DNA from: Candidatus Thorarchaeota archaeon
GTDB taxonomy: Archaea > Asgardarchaeota > Thorarchaeia > Thorarchaeales > Thorarchaeaceae
Direction: 5' to 3'
DNA: 21,476 nucleotides
NCBI GenBank assembly: GCA_048882385.1
Contig: JBHLRQ010000051.1
Span: 1-21,476 of the forward strand
Under the pieces are notes generated by a model. It saw nothing but the letters and a program-made list of their open reading frames with translations, was not told the DNA's origin and searched no databases. A program made the position numbers and the translations under genes. This document shows positions 6,515-16,529 of this stretch, one piece after another. Position 1 is the stretch's first letter; each line of letters begins with the position of its first letter.

Positions 6515-7987
6515 TTATTGAGATTCGTAGCCCTCTGGCGGTTGGAATCCCCCAATGATATCCGCCAATTTACCAGCAATATCTATTGGAGTCGCATCTT
6601 CTAAATAGGGACCTATAATTTGAACACCTACAGGTAATCCGTCTTTTGTTAGTCCAATTGGAGCCGTTGTTGCAGGGAGGCCAGTCAATGTTGCAAAGGA
6701 TATCCAGAATAATAAATCGCTATATTGTCTTGGGCCTTCTGGGGTGTTTAGAATACGATGAATAAATGGTTGACTGTGGTCGTGAGGAAAAGCAGGAATA
6801 AATGCTGTAGGGAGGAGAAAAGCATCGTGGGTACGGAAGTAATCTTGCCAAATTTCTCTGGCTGCTATCCGTGCTAAGCTGGCAGATTGGAAATGTTTGT
6901 GTGGGGCAATCCATGCTTGAGCAAGCCTTGAGTTATAGAACTCATCCTGATTTGCAGCTAGTTGGTGGAATTCCACTATTTTTTCGTCTTGTAGTTGATA
7001 CGCAAATGTGGAATATAATAAGAAAAGATAGGTATCATATTGATTTGAAGGATTGACACCAGGCGGCCAACCTTCTTCTAAGACTAAGCCTGCCTTTCGA
7101 AGTGCTTCAACTGCTTGAGATAGCACCTCCTTCACGTCAGATGTAACCGGGCAAAGCGGATCATCTATTATGTAACCAATACTATAGTCCGCTAAACGAA
7201 TTCCTCTCGCAGGTGGTAGAGTCCACTTGTATGCAAGAGTATCATTTGGACTTGGTCCTCCGATGATTTCAAGTGCTAATATGAGATCATCTGCACTTCT
7301 GGCAAGCGGTCCAACTACAGCTAAATCCGGAGGTGGTGCTAGGATACCTGGGGGAGGTGGGATATGACCGTGCATAGGGACAACATTTAGGCTAGGTTTA
7401 TGACCATATACACCACAAAAGTGAGCAGGAATTCGGATAGATCCTCCTATATCACTCCCTATTGACAAATAACTTAACCCAGCAGCAAGTGCAGCTGCCC
7501 CACCACCTGTTGAACCTCCAGGGGTAAGTTTGTGATTCCAAGGATTATTAGTTGTACCAAAGATCTCGTTGTAGCTCTGCCAGTCATCGGCCATTGATGG
7601 TGTATTTGTATGACCAATGATGACCGAACCTGCTTCACGAATCCGTTTAACAGCCTCTGCATCTCTTCTTGGAATATGAGTAGCTAATTCAGTTGTTCCA
7701 GCGGTTGTAAGAACATTAGCTATTTCGAGTGTGTCTTTGATTGAGCAAGGGACACCATGTAGTGGTCCCCATGATTCTCCTTTTGTTAGTGCTTCATCTG
7801 CGGCGCGAGCTCGATTTAGTGCATCATCCCCGATGAGTGTGATAACTGCATTGAGACTTGGATTATATTTCTCAATTCGTTCTAGAATTTGTTTAGTGAG
7901 TTCTAGGGAGGATACATCGCCTCTCTGAATAGCCCTTGCTACCTCTACTGCGGAAGAAAACACAAAGCTAGAGGGTTCTGTCGACAA
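6515..7987 (-). CDS. Amidase signature (AS) family amidase
   Basis: LHGVPCSIKD (Lys), PGGSTGG and GSDIGGSIRIPA give the Ser-cisSer-Lys triad; GLPVGVQI at the C-terminus. Start placed at TTG 7987, downstream of AGGAGG. Confidence 0.9.
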   Translation of the reverse strand: MSTEPSSFVFSSAVEVARAIQRGDVSSLELTKQILERIEKYNPSLNAVITLIGDDALNRARAADEALTKGESWGPLHGVPCSIKDTLEIANVLTTAGTTELATHIPRRDAEAVKRIREAGSVIIGHTNTPSMADDWQSYNEIFGTTNNPWNHKLTPGGSTGGGAAALAAGLSYLSIGSDIGGSIRIPAHFCGVYGHKPSLNVVPMHGHIPPPPGILAPPPDLAVVGPLARSADDLILALEIIGGPSPNDTLAYKWTLPPARGIRLADYSIGYIIDDPLCPVTSDVKEVLSQAVEALRKAGLVLEEGWPPGVNPSNQYDTYLFLLYSTFAYQLQDEKIVEFHQLAANQDEFYNSRLAQAWIAPHKHFQSASLARIAAREIWQDYFRTHDAFLLPTAFIPAFPHDHSQPFIHRILNTPEGPRQYSDLLFWISFATLTGLPATTAPIGLTKDGLPVGVQIIGPYLEDATPIDIAGKLADIIGGFQPPEGYESQ

Positions 7988-8083
7988 AGACCAATTCCTC
8001 CTACAATCCCTACATAGTTTTACTAGTTTGCTAAAAACACTTTGGAGCAATAAATGAGCCCTAATTTGCTTTGTAGATATAAT

Positions 8084-8114
8084 CAAACTTATAAGAATCA
8101 GTTAACAATTGTTA
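8084..8114 (+). promoter_or_regulatory. Putative archaeal BRE/TATA (CAAA-CTTATAAG) plus 12-bp palindrome TAACAATTGTTA upstream of the tusA operon
   Basis: TTATAA at 8089-8094 preceded by CAAAC, about 35 nt before ATG 8127. Perfect palindrome at 8103-8114. Confidence 0.5.
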
Positions 8115-8126
8115 GTTGTGAATTCC

Positions 8127-8372
8127 ATGGCGGATATGGAACCGGCTGAGAGCCTGGACTGTGTGGGGCTATTCTGCCCGCAACCACTATTCCAGACCCG
8201 AGAAGCAATTGATGAGTTAGAACCTGGCCAAATACTTGAGATGCTGTCTGATGACCCAGCTGCAGAAGAGGACATCAAACGATTCGCAAAACGGACTGGA
8301 CATGAGTTATTGCTCTTCGAGCGTTTGGAAGATGGTGTGCAGAGATTTCTCATAAAGAAAAAGGAGGCGTAA
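8127..8372 (+). CDS. tusA: TusA/SirA family sulfur carrier
   Basis: LDCVGLFCPQP (CPxP motif), LEMLSDDPAAEEDI, about 81 aa. Confidence 0.92.
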   Translation: MADMEPAESLDCVGLFCPQPLFQTREAIDELEPGQILEMLSDDPAAEEDIKRFAKRTGHELLLFERLEDGVQRFLIKKKEA

Positions 8373-8377
8373 GAAAA

Positions 8378-8731
8378 GTGGCAAGCATTTTGTATGTTCA
8401 AACATCAGATGATCCAGAACGCCAATATTCTCCTTTTGTCCTAGCTCAGAGTGCAAAAGCAATGGATATTGAGCCTATGATATACTTCTTAGGACAAGGA
8501 TTGAGAGTATTGCAACCTGGAGCAGCTGAAAAAATCAAACTGGGCACCTTCCCAAGTCTTCAAGAGATGATAAAGAAGACAGTTGAGATGGGTATTCCAA
8601 TTTATGTTTGTGAGGCGTCCAAACAAATGCTGGGCTGGGATAAAGTTGAACTTGACCCAGACCTGAAAATTGTCGGAGCCGCAACACTTAACGACCTTGT
8701 CCTAGAAGCAGACGCGACACAATGGTTCTAG
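8378..8731 (+). CDS. DsrE/DsrF-like sulfur relay protein
   Basis: 117 aa with DsrE-fold pattern: IYFLGQG, GIPIYVCEAS (single Cys), IVGAATL. GGAGG precedes the GTG start. Confidence 0.8.
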   Translation: MASILYVQTSDDPERQYSPFVLAQSAKAMDIEPMIYFLGQGLRVLQPGAAEKIKLGTFPSLQEMIKKTVEMGIPIYVCEASKQMLGWDKVELDPDLKIVGAATLNDLVLEADATQWF

Positions 8732-8748
8732 AACAAGGATGATGAGTA

Positions 8749-9912
8749 ATGAAACAGGTGTATTTAGACTACCACAGTGCCAAACCAGTGGACCCTAGAG
8801 TTATTGATGGAATGACGAAGTATCTCTATGATGCTTTTGGAAATCCCTCCTCTCTACATCAAGTTGGGGATGAAGCCACTGAAGCATTAGAAGAGAGCCG
8901 TAAGACAATTGCCAAGTATATCAATGCCGATGAAGATGAGATTGTATTCACCTCTGGCGCAACAGAATCAATAAACCTAGGAATAATTGGGTATGCTCTA
9001 AGGAACAAAAAGAAGGGCAATCACATTATCATGTCTGAAATCGAACATATCTCAATTCATAATATTGCTAAATATCTTGAACGTGAAGGATTCAAGATAT
9101 CAAAAGTCCCAGTGGACCAATACGGAATGGTTGACATACGAAAAATAGAACGGCGCATCACAGATCAGACAATACTCATCACAGTTGGTATGGCAAGTAA
9201 CGAGATTGGAACTATTCAACCAATCAACGAGATTGGTAAGCTTGCAGCTGACAAGGGTATCACATTTCACACCGATGCTGTAGCCGCTCAAGGACTCCTC
9301 ACGATTGATGTCAAGAAAGACAACATTAACCTAATGGCATTATCATCAAACGATTTCTATGGCCCAAGAGGTGTCGGTGTTCTCTATATGCAGAAAAAGT
9401 ATCGAGTAAATCCGATTATGATTGGTGGAGGACAAGAACGCGGTCTTAGATCAGGAAGTGAAGATATTCCTGGCATTGTAGGTATGAAACTTGCTGTTGA
9501 TATTATGAAGAAAGAGATGAAAACTGAAATAAAACGATTCAGAGGATACCGGGATCGAATGATCGAACAAATTCTCAATGATGTACCAGATAGTCATCTC
9601 AATGGACACCCAACTGAGAGACTAGCAAGTAATGCACATTTCAGATTCGAGGGAATTGAAGGCGAATCGATTCTCCTCTCATTCAAGGATTTAGGCATTT
9701 CAGTGTCAACAGGGTCAGCATGTACATCGAAAACATTGGAACCATCCCACACACTGATTGCGACTGGCCTCTTACATGAAGAAGCTCATGGATCATTACA
9801 GCTCACTACTGGAAGATTCAATACAGAAGACGATATAGATAGAGTGTTGGAAGTCGTGCCGCAAGTCGTTTCGCGACTTCGAGACCTCTCCCCAATTTAC
9901 ACTAAGAAGTGA
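8749..9912 (+). CDS. iscS: IscS/NifS-like class V PLP-fold protein with PLP Lys replaced by Asp (Archaeoglobus IscS type)
   Basis: FGNPSS, FTSGATE, NEIGTIQP, GGGQERGLRSG and STGSACTS (Cys325) are intact. The canonical SxHKxYGPKG reads SSNDFYGPRG (Asp202). Confidence 0.9.
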   Translation: MKQVYLDYHSAKPVDPRVIDGMTKYLYDAFGNPSSLHQVGDEATEALEESRKTIAKYINADEDEIVFTSGATESINLGIIGYALRNKKKGNHIIMSEIEHISIHNIAKYLEREGFKISKVPVDQYGMVDIRKIERRITDQTILITVGMASNEIGTIQPINEIGKLAADKGITFHTDAVAAQGLLTIDVKKDNINLMALSSNDFYGPRGVGVLYMQKKYRVNPIMIGGGQERGLRSGSEDIPGIVGMKLAVDIMKKEMKTEIKRFRGYRDRMIEQILNDVPDSHLNGHPTERLASNAHFRFEGIEGESILLSFKDLGISVSTGSACTSKTLEPSHTLIATGLLHEEAHGSLQLTTGRFNTEDDIDRVLEVVPQVVSRLRDLSPIYTKK

Positions 9913-9919
9913 AAGAAAA

Positions 9920-10699
9920 ATGAAATCAACAAAGTACAGCGAAAAGGTTCTGGATCACTTTCGAAATCCACGAAATGTGGGTACACTGGAAGGAGATGAT
10001 GTTGCAGTTGGCAAAGTAGGAAATCCTACATGCGGCGACATCATGGAGGTCTACATAAGGATTGATGGTGACACCATCACCGATGCAAAATTCAGGACCT
10101 TTGGATGTGGTTCAGCAATTGCGACAACAAGCATGACCACAGAGATGGTCAAGGGGATGTCCCTTGATGAAGCAATGAAACTCACAAGGCAAGATGTTGC
10201 AGAGGAATTAGATGGTCTACCTCCAATAAAGATGCACTGTTCAAACTTGGCAGCTGATGCTCTTCATGAGGCGATTATTAACTTCCGAAAGGGAAGAGGT
10301 GAGCATATTGACGAAGTGGAGATGACATCTATACCGGAACCCGGGTGTGTGGTGGGGCAAGATGAATTTCTCAACAAGGGCGTATGGCTTAGTGTTGAGG
10401 ATCCCAAAGATTTCAAGGACCTTCGTACACTTGTCCTTCACTCAGGTGATGAGTCAGTCCAGATTGCATTGGATTTAACCGAGCAGACAGAACGAGTCAT
10501 ACTTCTTACACCTGAGAAGACAGTGATGACAACTCCTGAGCTTGAAGAAGAGCTAAGTAATTCAAGTGTCAAATTGTTGACAGAGTCACGATTGCTTGAG
10601 ATACGTGGAGAATTTGAAGTTGAGAAAGTTCTCATTTTCAACATTGATGAAGATGAGGAATACGAGCTTTTCGTAGATGCAGTTGTAATAATCGAGTAA
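9920..10699 (+). CDS. iscU: IscU/NifU_N Fe-S scaffold with C-terminal degenerate TrxR-like Rossmann domain
   Basis: YSEKVLDHFRNPRNVG, GNPTCGD, FGCGSAIA and LPPIKMHC; followed by an extra acidic domain of about 115 aa. Confidence 0.9.
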   Translation: MKSTKYSEKVLDHFRNPRNVGTLEGDDVAVGKVGNPTCGDIMEVYIRIDGDTITDAKFRTFGCGSAIATTSMTTEMVKGMSLDEAMKLTRQDVAEELDGLPPIKMHCSNLAADALHEAIINFRKGRGEHIDEVEMTSIPEPGCVVGQDEFLNKGVWLSVEDPKDFKDLRTLVLHSGDESVQIALDLTEQTERVILLTPEKTVMTTPELEEELSNSSVKLLTESRLLEIRGEFEVEKVLIFNIDEDEEYELFVDAVVIIE

Positions 10700-10745: not shown

Positions 10746-11207
10746 ATGCTCGAAATCAGAAATGCCACTCAGGATGAAATACCTCTACTAAAGCAGATGT
10801 ATATGACTGAGGTTGAAGAACACGAAAAAAGAGCTCAAACTTTTGCTAATGAATTGGTAAATCGATTCAAAACAATGTTGGCGTTCAAAAATGGTAATCT
10901 TTGTGGAACTGCATCGTGGGATATCAGGGGTGGTCTTGATGATGGCGTTGTTGAGATAATTGGCATTGGTGTAAATTCGGATTACCAACGTCAAAAGATC
11001 GCTTCAAGTTTGATTGATTCTGTGACTGATGAAGCGAATCGATACTATTCTGAGGCGGGGTACAAGCTCAGAATAATTATGTTATTCATGGAGAAGGGAA
11101 ACGAAGTAGCTCATAAGTTTTACACATCAGTGGGTTTCGAGGAAGTTGCCTGCATTAATGGACTCTATCCTCATGATGATGGCTCAATATGGATACGTCA
11201 TCTATAA
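10746..11207 (+). CDS. GNAT family N-acetyltransferase
   Basis: IRNAT N-terminus, IGVNSDYQRQKIASSL (motif A), NEVAHKFYTSVGF (motif B). Confidence 0.88.
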   Translation: MLEIRNATQDEIPLLKQMYMTEVEEHEKRAQTFANELVNRFKTMLAFKNGNLCGTASWDIRGGLDDGVVEIIGIGVNSDYQRQKIASSLIDSVTDEANRYYSEAGYKLRIIMLFMEKGNEVAHKFYTSVGFEEVACINGLYPHDDGSIWIRHL

Positions 11208-11261: not shown

Positions 11262-12443
11262 GTGGAAAATCAAGATTTGAAGCTCATCTATCCTGGAAAG
11301 GAACCTCGTGAAAACATCATTTCCTCAAAGAGTTCAACGTTCAGTACGACACTACAGTATGGCGCTACTGAAAGGGACATGTGGGTTAACAGGATTTTCT
11401 GGAGCGACAATCTAAATGTACTCCATTACTTGTTGACTGATTCAGCTATACGAAATGCGATTGATGAATTGGGGGGCATCAAGCTTGTCTATATCGATCC
11501 ACCATTCGGGACAGGGGATATGTATTATTCTCAAGGAAAACTTGCATACTCTGCGGAACTACAAGGACCAGACTACATTGAGTTTGTGAGAAGGCGGTTG
11601 ATTCTATTACATGAGCTACTTGAGGAAGATGGTAGTATCTTTCTCAGAATTGACTATCATTTTGGTCACTATCTAAAGATAATCCTAGACGAGATTTTTG
11701 GACAAAGGAACTTCCGAAATGAGATTGTCATTAACAGACGAAGAAAGAGTGCACAAGAAACAAAGCGCTACAATGTTGCTAATGATGTTCTCCTTTTCTA
11801 TTCCAAGACTGACGATTTCTATTTACAAAAGAAGATTCGGAAAAGACTCTGTACATTCTGCAGCCAAGAGAAAAAACCAGACTGGCATGCCATGATTTCT
11901 TCTGGTGTTAGAAACCCACCTGAAAGAGTGATTCTCGGTGAAACAAGACTACCTCCTAAGAAAATGCATTGGACATATCGACAGGAAAAGATTGACAAGC
12001 TTGAATCAGAGGGCAGACTTAGAATCAACAAGAAGTTGACCTATGTAGATTTGAAGGGGGAACAGGTCAAGGGAATGCCAGAGTATCTCCAATCCGATAA
12101 AGTCCCGGTTGACTCGTTGTGGATTGATTTGAAGGGGTACACTCATCGATGGAAATATCCATCTGAAAATTCAGAGGAACTTCTTGATCGTGTCATTTCT
12201 TCGTCTTCAAGAGAGAAGGATTTAGTTCTTGATGCATTTGCGGGATCAGGAACAACAGGAATAGTATCAGAGAAACTGGGGAGAAATTGGATTCTAATTG
12301 ACTCTTCAGAAATCGCCATTCAGACAATACTCAGGAGATTGTTCAGTATGAAAAAAGGAATAGGAAACAGAGGAAAACTACTTACCCCAAGACCCTTTGT
12401 GCTTCATGAATGTATGAAATCAGTTAGGAAGAAATCTCAATGA
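11262..12443 (+). CDS. Beta-class amino (N6A/N4C) DNA methyltransferase, Mod-like
   Basis: Motif IV YIDPPF precedes motif I VLDAFAGSGTT. Also has FRNEIV and KLGRNWILID. Confidence 0.9.
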   Translation: MENQDLKLIYPGKEPRENIISSKSSTFSTTLQYGATERDMWVNRIFWSDNLNVLHYLLTDSAIRNAIDELGGIKLVYIDPPFGTGDMYYSQGKLAYSAELQGPDYIEFVRRRLILLHELLEEDGSIFLRIDYHFGHYLKIILDEIFGQRNFRNEIVINRRRKSAQETKRYNVANDVLLFYSKTDDFYLQKKIRKRLCTFCSQEKKPDWHAMISSGVRNPPERVILGETRLPPKKMHWTYRQEKIDKLESEGRLRINKKLTYVDLKGEQVKGMPEYLQSDKVPVDSLWIDLKGYTHRWKYPSENSEELLDRVISSSSREKDLVLDAFAGSGTTGIVSEKLGRNWILIDSSEIAIQTILRRLFSMKKGIGNRGKLLTPRPFVLHECMKSVRKKSQ

Positions 12444-13120
12444 GTCAATCAATAGGGACTCTCCAAGAGGGTTCTTTACATTCAAGCATCAAGGAGCTCT
12501 ACACAAAAGGAGGTGCAGAAACGGAGATAGTTGTGGAAGGGTATGTGATTGATGTTGTACGTGATGGACTTCTGATAGAAGTCCAAACTGGGAATTTTGC
12601 GAAAATCAAGTCAAAGATATTATCACTGATCAAGAACCATCGAGTTCGTCTTGTGTACCCAATTCCTAAAGAAAAGTGGATTGTTCGTGAGAGTCCCGAT
12701 GGGCTGAAAGAGCTTAGTCGAAGGAAATCACCTAAGCAAATGGATTTCATTGATTTGTTTGATGAGTTGGTCAGATTTCCAAGTTTTATTGCACACAATA
12801 ACTTCTCTCTGGAAGTGTTACTAATAAAAGAAGAAGAGATTCGTCGTAAGGATGGAAAAGGAAGTTGGAGAAGAAGAGGATGGAGTATTATCGATCGGAA
12901 ATTGATTGATGTTGAAGACAAGCGATTATATGAACAACCATCGGACTTCCTAGAATTCATCCCTGATTCATTGACGAAACCATTCAGAAATTCTGATTTG
13001 GCTGAAGTGTTAGGAATTCATACCAGAATTGTTCAGCGAATGACATACTGTCTTCGTAAGATGGACGCACTCAGAGTTGTTGGCAAAAAGGGAAACGCAC
13101 TACTACTTGATACAATATGA
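12440..13120 (+). CDS. Uncharacterised PD-(D/E)XK-like nuclease fold protein with C-terminal wHTH
   Basis: E..SLH..K helix, IDV...LIEVQT (D...ExQ variant) and a C-terminal FRNSDLAEVLGI..RMTYCLRKM HTH. ATGA overlap with the MTase stop. Confidence 0.65.
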   Translation: MSQSIGTLQEGSLHSSIKELYTKGGAETEIVVEGYVIDVVRDGLLIEVQTGNFAKIKSKILSLIKNHRVRLVYPIPKEKWIVRESPDGLKELSRRKSPKQMDFIDLFDELVRFPSFIAHNNFSLEVLLIKEEEIRRKDGKGSWRRRGWSIIDRKLIDVEDKRLYEQPSDFLEFIPDSLTKPFRNSDLAEVLGIHTRIVQRMTYCLRKMDALRVVGKKGNALLLDTI

Positions 13121-15350: not shown

Positions 15351-16529
15351 TCATTTGCATACTAAATCAAGTGCTGATGTGAGGTCCATGAGTAGATCAT
15401 CCGCATCTTCGATTCCAACTGACAATCTCACAGTTGATTCAGAGATGTTCATCTCTGCGAGAGCTTTCTCATCCAATCCATAGTGTGTTGTCAGAGCAGG
15501 AATACTAGCTAGACTTTCAACACCGCCTAAAGAAACTGCGTTAAGAAAGATCTTGAGAGAGTCAACGAAAGTGCTTGTTCCAGCTAAATCTGAATCTATC
15601 TCAACACTCATCATACCCCCAAATCCATCCATCTGTTTTTTGGCTACATCATGATGGGGATGACTTGGAAGTCCTGGATAGTGGATGCGTCGGATTCTCG
15701 AGTCTTTTTCTAACTTCTCCGCAAGATACTTTGCATTGGAGTTGTGTCTCTCCATCCTAACACTCAGGGTCTTGATTCCACGATCTAGTAGGAATGAAGC
15801 GAACGGATCCATGGTGCCTCCTAAAAGTTTTGCAGCACTACGTACTTCAGTCATAAGCTTGTTTGATCCAGAAACTGTTCCAGCGATGATGTCACTATGA
15901 CCTCCCAGGTATTTGGTTGCACTATGCATTACTAAATCGATACCAAGTTTATGTGGTCGCTGATTGATTGGAGAACCAAAGGTACTATCTATCATACTAA
16001 TCAATCCGGATGCTTTTGCAGCATCAGCTACCTTCTCTATGTCAACAATCTTCAGAGTTGGATTAGTAGGAGTTTCAAAGAAGACCAGCTTATACTTGTC
16101 ACCAGAGTCTTGAATTCTATCAATTAATTCATCAGTATCAACATAGTCAACCTGAATTCCATTCTGAGGAAGTATCTTATTGAAGAGCTGAACTGTCCCA
16201 CCATAGATTGAGTCACTCGAGAGGATTCTTTCTCCACCCTTCATGAGACCCATAACAGCAGAAGATATTGCCGCCATACCCGATGCTAGAACATGAGTAT
16301 CCTCAGTTCCTTCAAGAGCACTGAGTTTTTCTTCAACGCTCTTAGTAGTTGGATTAGTCCATCGCGTATACACATGTCCTCCCGACTTTCCCTGAACTGC
16401 GTCAAGCATTTCCTGTTGATTCTCAAAGACAAAAGTTGAGGTTTGAGTTATTGGAACAACAGCAGGACCTGAAGTCTGCATGTGCGTACCTTGGACACAA
16501 AGTGTAGAAAGGTTTCTCTCCGTTTTCAT
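15351..16529 (-). CDS. Cys/Met metabolism PLP enzyme (cystathionine gamma-lyase/synthase or methionine gamma-lyase family)
   Basis: YTRWTNPT, ASGMAAI, YGGT, ETPTNP, HSATKYLGGHSD (PLP Lys intact), SLGGVESL and RLSVGIED. Confidence 0.93.
   Translation of the reverse strand: MKTERNLSTLCVQGTHMQTSGPAVVPITQTSTFVFENQQEMLDAVQGKSGGHVYTRWTNPTTKSVEEKLSALEGTEDTHVLASGMAAISSAVMGLMKGGERILSSDSIYGGTVQLFNKILPQNGIQVDYVDTDELIDRIQDSGDKYKLVFFETPTNPTLKIVDIEKVADAAKASGLISMIDSTFGSPINQRPHKLGIDLVMHSATKYLGGHSDIIAGTVSGSNKLMTEVRSAAKLLGGTMDPFASFLLDRGIKTLSVRMERHNSNAKYLAEKLEKDSRIRRIHYPGLPSHPHHDVAKKQMDGFGGMMSVEIDSDLAGTSTFVDSLKIFLNAVSLGGVESLASIPALTTHYGLDEKALAEMNISESTVRLSVGIEDADDLLMDLTSALDLVCK

Follow-up and report, generated by a model that had tools for sequence, protein, structure and literature searches.

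Ever since the structures of the Archaeoglobus fulgidus proteins appeared, it has been a puzzle that some archaea retain an IscS without the ability to desulfurate cysteine. According to excerpts of two publications, A. fulgidus IscS lacks desulfurase activity because an Asp stands in for the catalytic Lys, and it provides a Cys ligand to a [2Fe-2S] cluster on IscU (PMC7585200, PMC13066941). The dead enzyme holds IscU and lends it the fourth cluster ligand (PMC7585200, in part). A 2026 review, in the portion available, states that the minimal iron–sulfur cluster (ISC) system has neither a known sulfur source nor a known electron donor, and presents SUF alone as having an intermediate sulfurtransferase to date (PMC13066941). 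Here we describe a tusA-dsrE-iscS-iscU operon found in a 21,476-nt stretch of DNA, hereafter the window, from Candidatus Thorarchaeota archaeon (contig JBHLRQ010000051.1, assembly GCA_048882385.1, forward strand). This operon very probably represents an A. fulgidus-type module of dead IscS and IscU equipped with a dedicated TusA and an optional DsrE3-like partner, and its conserved pairing across distant anaerobes suggests how dead IscS enzymes obtain sulfur. Three elements are already in print: IscS without the lysine, the minimal ISC system, and Fe-S assembly based on sulfide. The fixed linkage of TusA/DsrE with lysine-less IscS appears to be new, as does a reductase-like tail fused to IscU; no description of either the partnership or the tail was found in the literature searched, most subscription journals lying outside its reach.

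The four genes lie on the plus strand. The first, tusA (8127–8372), begins with ATG at 8127 and encodes an 81-aa TusA-family sulfur carrier (Pfam PF01206, 1.4e-24); a TTATAA was spotted by eye 33 nt before this start codon. The dsrE-like gene (8378–8731) encodes a 117-aa DsrE3-like sulfur transferase (PF02635, 1.7e-15; PF13686, DrsE_2, 6.2e-13), and it is followed by the gene for a lysine-less IscS/MisS-type protein of 387 aa (8749–9912; PF00266, Aminotran_5, class-V aminotransferase, 7.3e-73). The last product, IscU, comprises 259 aa: residues 1–134, encoded at 9920–10321, contain the scaffold domain (PF01592, NifU_N, residues 5–124, 5.3e-48), and residues 135–259 of the same polypeptide, encoded at 10322–10699, form a second, degenerate NAD(P)H-binding domain. 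An initial annotation, made from the sequence alone, had described four co-oriented genes separated by 5, 17 and 7 nt, and both the open reading frames (ORFs) and a base-by-base reading of the DNA agree with it. Its account of the active-site residues also held: TusA carries C17-P-Q-P, Cys78 is the only cysteine of the DsrE-like protein, and IscS has SSND at residues 199–202 in place of SGHK, with the loop Cys325 retained. Its description of an IscU with all scaffold ligands was correct as to the ligands and overlooked the 125-residue C-terminal domain.

In the alignment, S199-S-N-D202 of the window IscS stands opposite S-G-H-K206 of E. coli IscS. Its best solved match is A. fulgidus 'cysteine desulfurase 2' (4eb5_A, E 7.6e-134), which also reads SSND; the corresponding motif in 4r5f_A is SSNK. 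The initial annotation presented the K-to-D exchange as new, a claim that does not survive, since this known type of IscS has already been solved and studied in A. fulgidus (4EB5). Likewise, its proposal that IscS serves as an adaptor and not as an enzyme is in line with the work on the A. fulgidus homologue, as far as excerpts of that study go (PMC7585200), and for this type it is established knowledge rather than a new deduction. The window protein falls below the NCBIfam equivalog cut-offs for both NifS (461 vs 530.75) and IscS (404 vs 548).

To place the protein among its relatives, genomes were scanned with an alignment of lysine-less homologues, and the best 80 loci of at least 600 stretches were retained as a sample rather than a census. 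Thirteen of these encode an IscS with Asp at the lysine site (Asp-type; 12 ND, 1 WD), and 67 encode the lysine-bearing HK type. Asp-type proteins have D202 for K, N201 for H and A179 for Q (12–14 of 14, depending on the position); in E. coli numbering, Q183 becomes A or P and H205 becomes N or W, while K, H and Q are present in all 67 lysine-type loci. They retain H104, D180, T76, S203 and C328 of the E. coli enzyme, the window IscS itself keeping H100, D176 and C325. The latter, the mobile-loop Cys in GSAC325TS, is invariant in 14/14 Asp-type proteins. Because it has lost the PLP (pyridoxal 5'-phosphate) lysine together with two further PLP-pocket residues, the window IscS, as judged from its residues, cannot be a normal cysteine desulfurase.

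Of the 150 best representatives at 50% identity, the window protein excluded, 133 keep the PLP lysine and 17 do not. A FastTree phylogeny of 167 rows, built with the motif columns retained, comprised the window, loci L001–L030 of the 80, and 136 representatives, 14 representatives outside 340–460 aa having been dropped. The window IscS and 19 other rows form a clade with a local support of 98, and none of the 20 has Lys (17 Asp, three other residues). In a separate count, Asp occupies the lysine site in 19/19 clade members, and 19 lysine-less proteins, some as little as 50% identical, share 75 invariant positions, Cys325 among them. Close IscS homologues are named mostly as Thorarchaeota, with some Promethearchaeota, Sifarchaeia and Odinarchaeota. 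Elsewhere in the tree stands a separate group of seven lysine-less rows (P0299, P0365, P0362, P0321, P0354, P0371 and P0386, with motifs QG, QQ, HR, HT, NQ, QS and NT), plus a few singletons; lysine has therefore been lost more than once.

The 13 Asp-type loci come from Thorarchaeota (1), Promethearchaeota (3), Bathyarchaeota (4), Methanomethyliaceae (1), Actinomycetota (3) and Nitrospinota (1). In every one of them tusA, assigned by Pfam, lies directly upstream, 3–124 nt before the next cluster gene, which is either dsrE or iscS. A dsrE gene occurs in 8/13, standing intact between tusA and iscS in six; in L011 a frame change interrupts it, the iscU of that locus being frameshifted as well, and in L010 a dsrE of a different subtype is located after iscU. 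iscU follows iscS in 11 of the 12 loci with a readable downstream side, L013 being cut; the exception, L007, has tusA-iscS with a NUDIX gene on the other strand where iscU would be expected. The conserved linkage that the initial annotation had set as a check on its proposal is thus complete for tusA and partial for dsrE. By comparison, the flanks of all 67 HK loci, covered to at most 7 kb, contained no ORF for TusA or DsrE, either by phmmer with the window proteins or by hidden Markov models of the cluster proteins (E <= 0.01). Fifty ORFs chosen from 12 HK loci were also examined: HscA turned up in seven of these loci and IscR, IscA, HscB or ferredoxin in several, while TusA and DsrE were missing from all 12. 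Conversely, Pfam annotation of the 13 Asp-type loci revealed no IscA, HscB, HscA or Fdx, and no family outside the cluster that is common to the flanks across phyla.

The GC content of the cluster tracks that of its host, from 33% to 68%, and TusA and IscS distances co-vary (Mantel r = 0.75, with 0/5000 permutations as high). Together with the conserved cluster, these properties indicate that the genes travelled and stayed together. The recurring gene order is more than chance, because it is found in related loci from at least five phyla with unrelated flanks. Three loci from metagenome-assembled genomes of Actinomycetota carry the full tusA-dsrE-iscS(Asp)-iscU(long) cluster (L002:2042–4648, L003:6350–8971 and L011:6295–8839), and their cluster proteins are closest to those of Thorarchaeota, in what looks like an old transfer between domains. 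Mis-binning of these loci was ruled out, as cluster and flanks are both at 64–68% GC. In the control set, a Nitrosopumilus IscS-like gene (L027:6550–8173) directly follows a DndE gene and, because of this position, probably encodes a DndA-type desulfurase for DNA phosphorothioation instead of an Fe-S protein.

The cysteines of the two carriers are invariant in the cluster. The nearest solved chains to the window TusA are those of E. coli TusA (1dcj and 3lvj_C, ~7e-12), and it possesses the CPxP Cys and the two conserved Asp residues of the PF01206 family. All 14 cluster TusAs have C17, P18, P20, R25, D43 and D49. Of these, D43/D49 are the counterparts of E. coli D45/D51, and R25 is that of E. 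coli R27, whose mutation is reported to abolish IscS binding in the part of the study available (PMC2854127). With 57.4 bits against a cut-off of 78 for NCBIfam NF001423, the protein qualifies as a TusA-family member, and that equivalog score does not demonstrate functional equivalence to E. coli TusA. Among solved chains, 3mc3_A comes closest to the DsrE-like protein (5.8e-10), its single Cys being aligned (YVC); this entry is named DsrE3A of S. solfataricus in an excerpt of PMC11094781. The protein combines the DsrE fold family with an active Cys aligned to that of DsrE3A and appears closest to DsrE3, not DsrE4; Cys78 is kept in 8/8 cluster DsrEs. A search among longer proteins also retrieved P0393, in which an IscR-like Rrf2 domain with three Cys is fused to a TusA of this subfamily. 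An apparent TusA-DsrE fusion, P0391, was discarded as a probable frameshift read-through, its DsrE N-terminus being replaced by unrelated residues.

The scaffold of IscU is intact. It keeps C38, D40, C63, H106 and C107 together with the LPPIK motif, and matches 7c8m_A (1.1e-50) and 4eb5_C (1.2e-45) in the PDB; cluster ligands and LPPIK are invariant in 118/118 fused IscUs. Beyond residue 124, however, lies the separate conserved domain of residues ~135–259. It matches TIGR01292 (thioredoxin reductase, TrxR; 1.5e-11, profile positions 117–232) and PDB 2zbw_A; for the latter, the single sequence gives 4.7e-08 and a seven-sequence profile 1.2e-13. All 35 PDB matches of this profile are TrxR, TrxR-type ferredoxin-NADP reductase (FNR) or AhpF, and always concern the same domain. 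The tail is therefore homologous to the NAD(P)H-binding domain of the low-Mr TrxR/TrxR-type FNR family. It contains neither an FAD domain nor a conserved Cys; GGGxxA is reduced to xxGxxS, with only a single Gly invariant (HSGDES), and the region aligned with the redox cysteines of TrxR reads LSVE. Lacking the FAD domain, the dinucleotide motif and the redox CxxC, it is, on these sequence features, a derived domain, not a reductase. The tail was detected in 257 database proteins, of which those named by source are all from Thorarchaeota except one from Sifarchaeia. In the locus sample it is present in L001–L006 (Thorarchaeota, Promethearchaeota and Actinomycetota) and frameshifted in L011, and it is absent from the sampled IscUs of Bathyarchaeota and Methanomethyliaceae and from those of all HK loci. 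It shows no similarity to the Pyr_redox protein of L009.

Our preferred reading of these observations is a relay that feeds sulfane sulfur into IscS Cys325 and IscU, to which we assign a probability of roughly 0.5. In such a relay, sulfane sulfur, either as persulfide or derived from polysulfide or thiosulfate, would be loaded onto Cys78 of the DsrE3-like protein where its gene is present, and would then pass to Cys17 of TusA. From there it would move to IscS Cys325 and/or IscU, where it would be reduced and built into the cluster, TusA acting as an intermediate sulfurtransferase that replaces cysteine desulfuration. The direction DsrE3-like to TusA to IscS/IscU is inferred: DsrE3-type proteins are reported to give sulfur to TusA (as thiosulfonate in M. 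cuprina) with little or no back-transfer, as far as the accessible part of the source states (PMC11094781), and this preference supports the order proposed. Within the operon, the sole candidate sulfur sink is IscS–IscU. The Rrf2-TusA fusion P0393 and the CoA-persulfide-reductase-like proteins that neighbour the cluster in Promethearchaeota (described below) also speak for the relay. The C-terminal domain of IscU, derived from a reductase and catalytically degenerate, might, as a guess and the weakest step of the scheme, dock a partner such as an electron donor. Only tentatively can the scheme be extended to the whole anaerobe clade, which would then make Fe-S clusters without cysteine desulfuration, with sulfur passing from DsrE3 through TusA to the loop Cys of dead IscS and being reduced on an IscU with a donor-recruiting tail.

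Several points weigh against the relay. Linkage alone gives no direction of sulfur flow, and the 13 loci form one clade, so that they represent one origin retained rather than 13 independent associations. The A. fulgidus and Methanosarcina loci are outside the locus sample, and the lysine-bearing lineages closest to the lysine-less clade are without genomic context in it. No DsrE was found within the fetched sequence of L001, L004, L007, L008 and L013; the first of these is another Thorarchaeota locus, on a 4.9-kb contig, and the last ends inside iscS. TusA is also fused to lysine-bearing IscS relatives in two of 17 long representatives, at the N-terminus in P0294 and at the C-terminus in P0332, and for this reason the TusA–IscS linkage may predate the loss of lysine. 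What is specific to the present loci is that the linkage was kept after that loss. As for docking, the position of E. coli TusA R31 is D/E in 13/14 and Y in 1/14 cluster TusAs, and that of IscS W45 is never W in the 14 Asp-type proteins, compared with W in 61/67 HK loci; with these two residues not kept, an interface of the E. coli type cannot be assumed here. At the position of E. coli TusA F58, 11/14 cluster TusAs have R. Furthermore, the A. fulgidus complex was obtained cluster-loaded as recombinant protein, according to an excerpt of the study (PMC7585200), which means that clusters as such can form without TusA. Finally, the window covers only 21 kb of the genome, and an active desulfurase encoded elsewhere could charge TusA.

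The alternative that fares best, although we regard it as unlikely, is that the dead IscS and IscU use free sulfide directly, with TusA and DsrE serving as outputs for tRNA or molybdopterin thiolation, or with TusA competing with IscU and thereby tuning assembly. Sulfide is reported to be the in vivo source of Fe-S sulfur in Methanococcus, and minimal systems can use it, as stated in parts of two publications (PMC7585200; PMC13066941). In E. coli, moreover, TusA takes sulfur from IscS, and TusA and IscU are mutually exclusive on IscS in the account available (PMC2854127); the TusA–IscS fusions with intact lysine fit a similar arrangement. An IscS without PLP chemistry, however, has no known route to a persulfide for export, the DsrE3-to-TusA preference noted above runs towards TusA, and no gene for a thiolation enzyme was found in the window or in the 13 Asp-type loci.

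A second, rather improbable alternative is that the module buffers, detoxifies or senses reactive sulfane sulfur, the dead IscS being a persulfide carrier and IscU a sink or sensor. The Promethearchaeota loci lend it some credit: in 3/3 of them a protein of ~800 aa is encoded 0.4–1.3 kb past the cluster (L004:10245–12638, L005:9789–12188, L006:9363–11741). The best matches of this flavoprotein are CoA-disulfide/persulfide reductases with rhodanese (3icr, 2.4e-183; 3nta; 8a56, 'CoA-persulfide reductase'), and its CoA-persulfide-reductase/Npsr-like architecture includes one TusA and two rhodanese domains. This domain content suggests that sulfane sulfur is handled close to the cluster in Promethearchaeota; no such gene is present in the window. 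L007, with tusA-iscS and no adjacent iscU, also fits a carrier role. Such a function is harder to reconcile with the full retention of cluster ligands and LPPIK in the fused IscUs, with nearest studied relatives that are bona fide cluster-binding complexes, and with a DsrE nearest to DsrE3 rather than DsrE4.

There is a slim chance that the system is still cysteine-dependent, an active desulfurase elsewhere charging TusA and the operon being the delivery and scaffold end of an ordinary relay. The small part of the genome in view leaves room for such an enzyme, and Methanosarcina acetivorans is described, in an excerpt, as having a lysine-less IscS1 beside an active IscS2 (PMC7585200). There is no direct counter-evidence; yet this explanation leaves unaccounted for the tight and exclusive coupling of tusA to the dead rather than the active IscS. 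Lastly, the loss of the catalytic lysine and of two PLP-pocket residues might suggest a decaying pseudo-enzyme in a relic gene order, a reading rejected because of the conservation of 75 positions including Cys325, with reading frames intact and a clade that spans at least five phyla.

The surroundings of the operon consist of a divergent amidase upstream and of GNAT acetyltransferase and DNA methylase genes downstream; from their Pfam annotation, the neighbours have no evident connection to sulfur trafficking or Fe-S assembly. No tRNA gene or Rfam match was found in the window. The amidase ORF (6515–8086, minus strand) has a listed TTG start only 40 nt from tusA. Its Pfam match begins only at residue 62, so the true start is probably further inside the ORF and the shared promoter region larger. 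The GNAT gene (10746–11207, same strand) begins 46 nt past iscU with no clear T-run between, and may be co-transcribed with it; in L005 a GNAT gene also follows iscU, but on the opposite strand. At 11262–13120, a DNA methyltransferase (PADLOC MTase_II, 8.7e-69) is followed, with a 4-nt overlap, by a 226-aa ORF without family match, and the two may form a restriction-modification pair. The sole further sulfur-related gene of the window lies ~4.6 kb downstream, near two HTH/MarR regulators, and encodes a Cys/Met-metabolism PLP enzyme (15351–16529, minus strand; PF01053, 2.7e-130).

The presence of a sulfur carrier in every examined locus of the lysine-less clade offers a concrete, testable answer on the sulfur side of the puzzle, and the fused reductase-like domain of IscU provides a lead on the electron side. 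If both the relay and the donor-recruiting tail are real, the minimal ISC system would have its missing intermediate sulfurtransferase in TusA and its missing point of electron entry in the tail of IscU. The tusA-dsrE-iscS-iscU cluster is widespread in sediment Asgard archaea and Bathyarchaeia, and a cluster arranged in a related way seems to be present in M. acetivorans, whose genetic tractability would make experiments feasible. In contrast, the suggestion in the initial annotation that an Asgard host would bear on Fe-S biogenesis before mitochondrial ISC is weak: Bathyarchaeia, Methanomethyliaceae, Actinomycetota and Nitrospinota have the cluster too, and the operon says little on the origin of mitochondrial ISC, which is of the lysine-bearing bacterial type.

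Among known systems, the window operon departs from a canonical ISC operon in that Pfam identified no IscR, IscA, HscB, HscA or ferredoxin in the window. This paucity it shares with the MIS system (MisS-MisU; Garcia et al. 2022, as cited in parts of PMC13066941 and PMC12192291), in which adjacent IscS-like and IscU-like proteins likewise occur without IscA, HscBA or ferredoxin. MIS is described in those parts with an active cysteine desulfurase as sulfur source and no further components, whereas here Lys and the PLP-pocket His and Gln are replaced, the desulfurase is dead, and two sulfur carriers are encoded in the operon. Lysine-less IscS1 also characterizes isc1 of M. acetivorans (IscS1 MA0808, IscU1 MA0807; PMC7585200, in part). 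P0369, a representative that may be the Methanosarcina protein, has the same loop motif with Thr instead of Asp at the lysine site. The A. fulgidus IscS2–IscU complex (PDB 4EB5, 4EB7, 4HVK; D199K variant 4R5F) has the same SSND, loop Cys and IscU partner as the window, but its IscU chain, ranked sixth among the matches (1.2e-45), is 153 aa long and without the reductase-like C-terminal domain, and no TusA/DsrE partner is named in the available portion of the published work (PMC7585200). Proteins of this type are characterized by the absence of cysteine desulfurase activity and by an (IscS–IscU)2 assembly bridged by a [2Fe-2S] cluster. The E. coli IscS–TusA relay (PDB 3LVJ) shares with the operon the CPxP Cys, the equivalents of Asp45 and Asp51, the pairing with an IscS-family protein and R27 (invariant here as R25). 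In E. coli, however, the two genes lie apart and TusA receives sulfur from an active IscS for use in tRNA thiolation, whereas here IscS is inactive, W45 is lost and R31 is replaced. The DsrE3–TusA relays of sulfur oxidisers (sHdr-associated; M. cuprina DsrE3A/TusA) likewise have a DsrE3-like protein with an aligned Cys beside tusA. They feed a dissimilatory oxidising complex, while the window operon, alongside which no shdr or dsr genes were found, has IscS–IscU as its only candidate sink.

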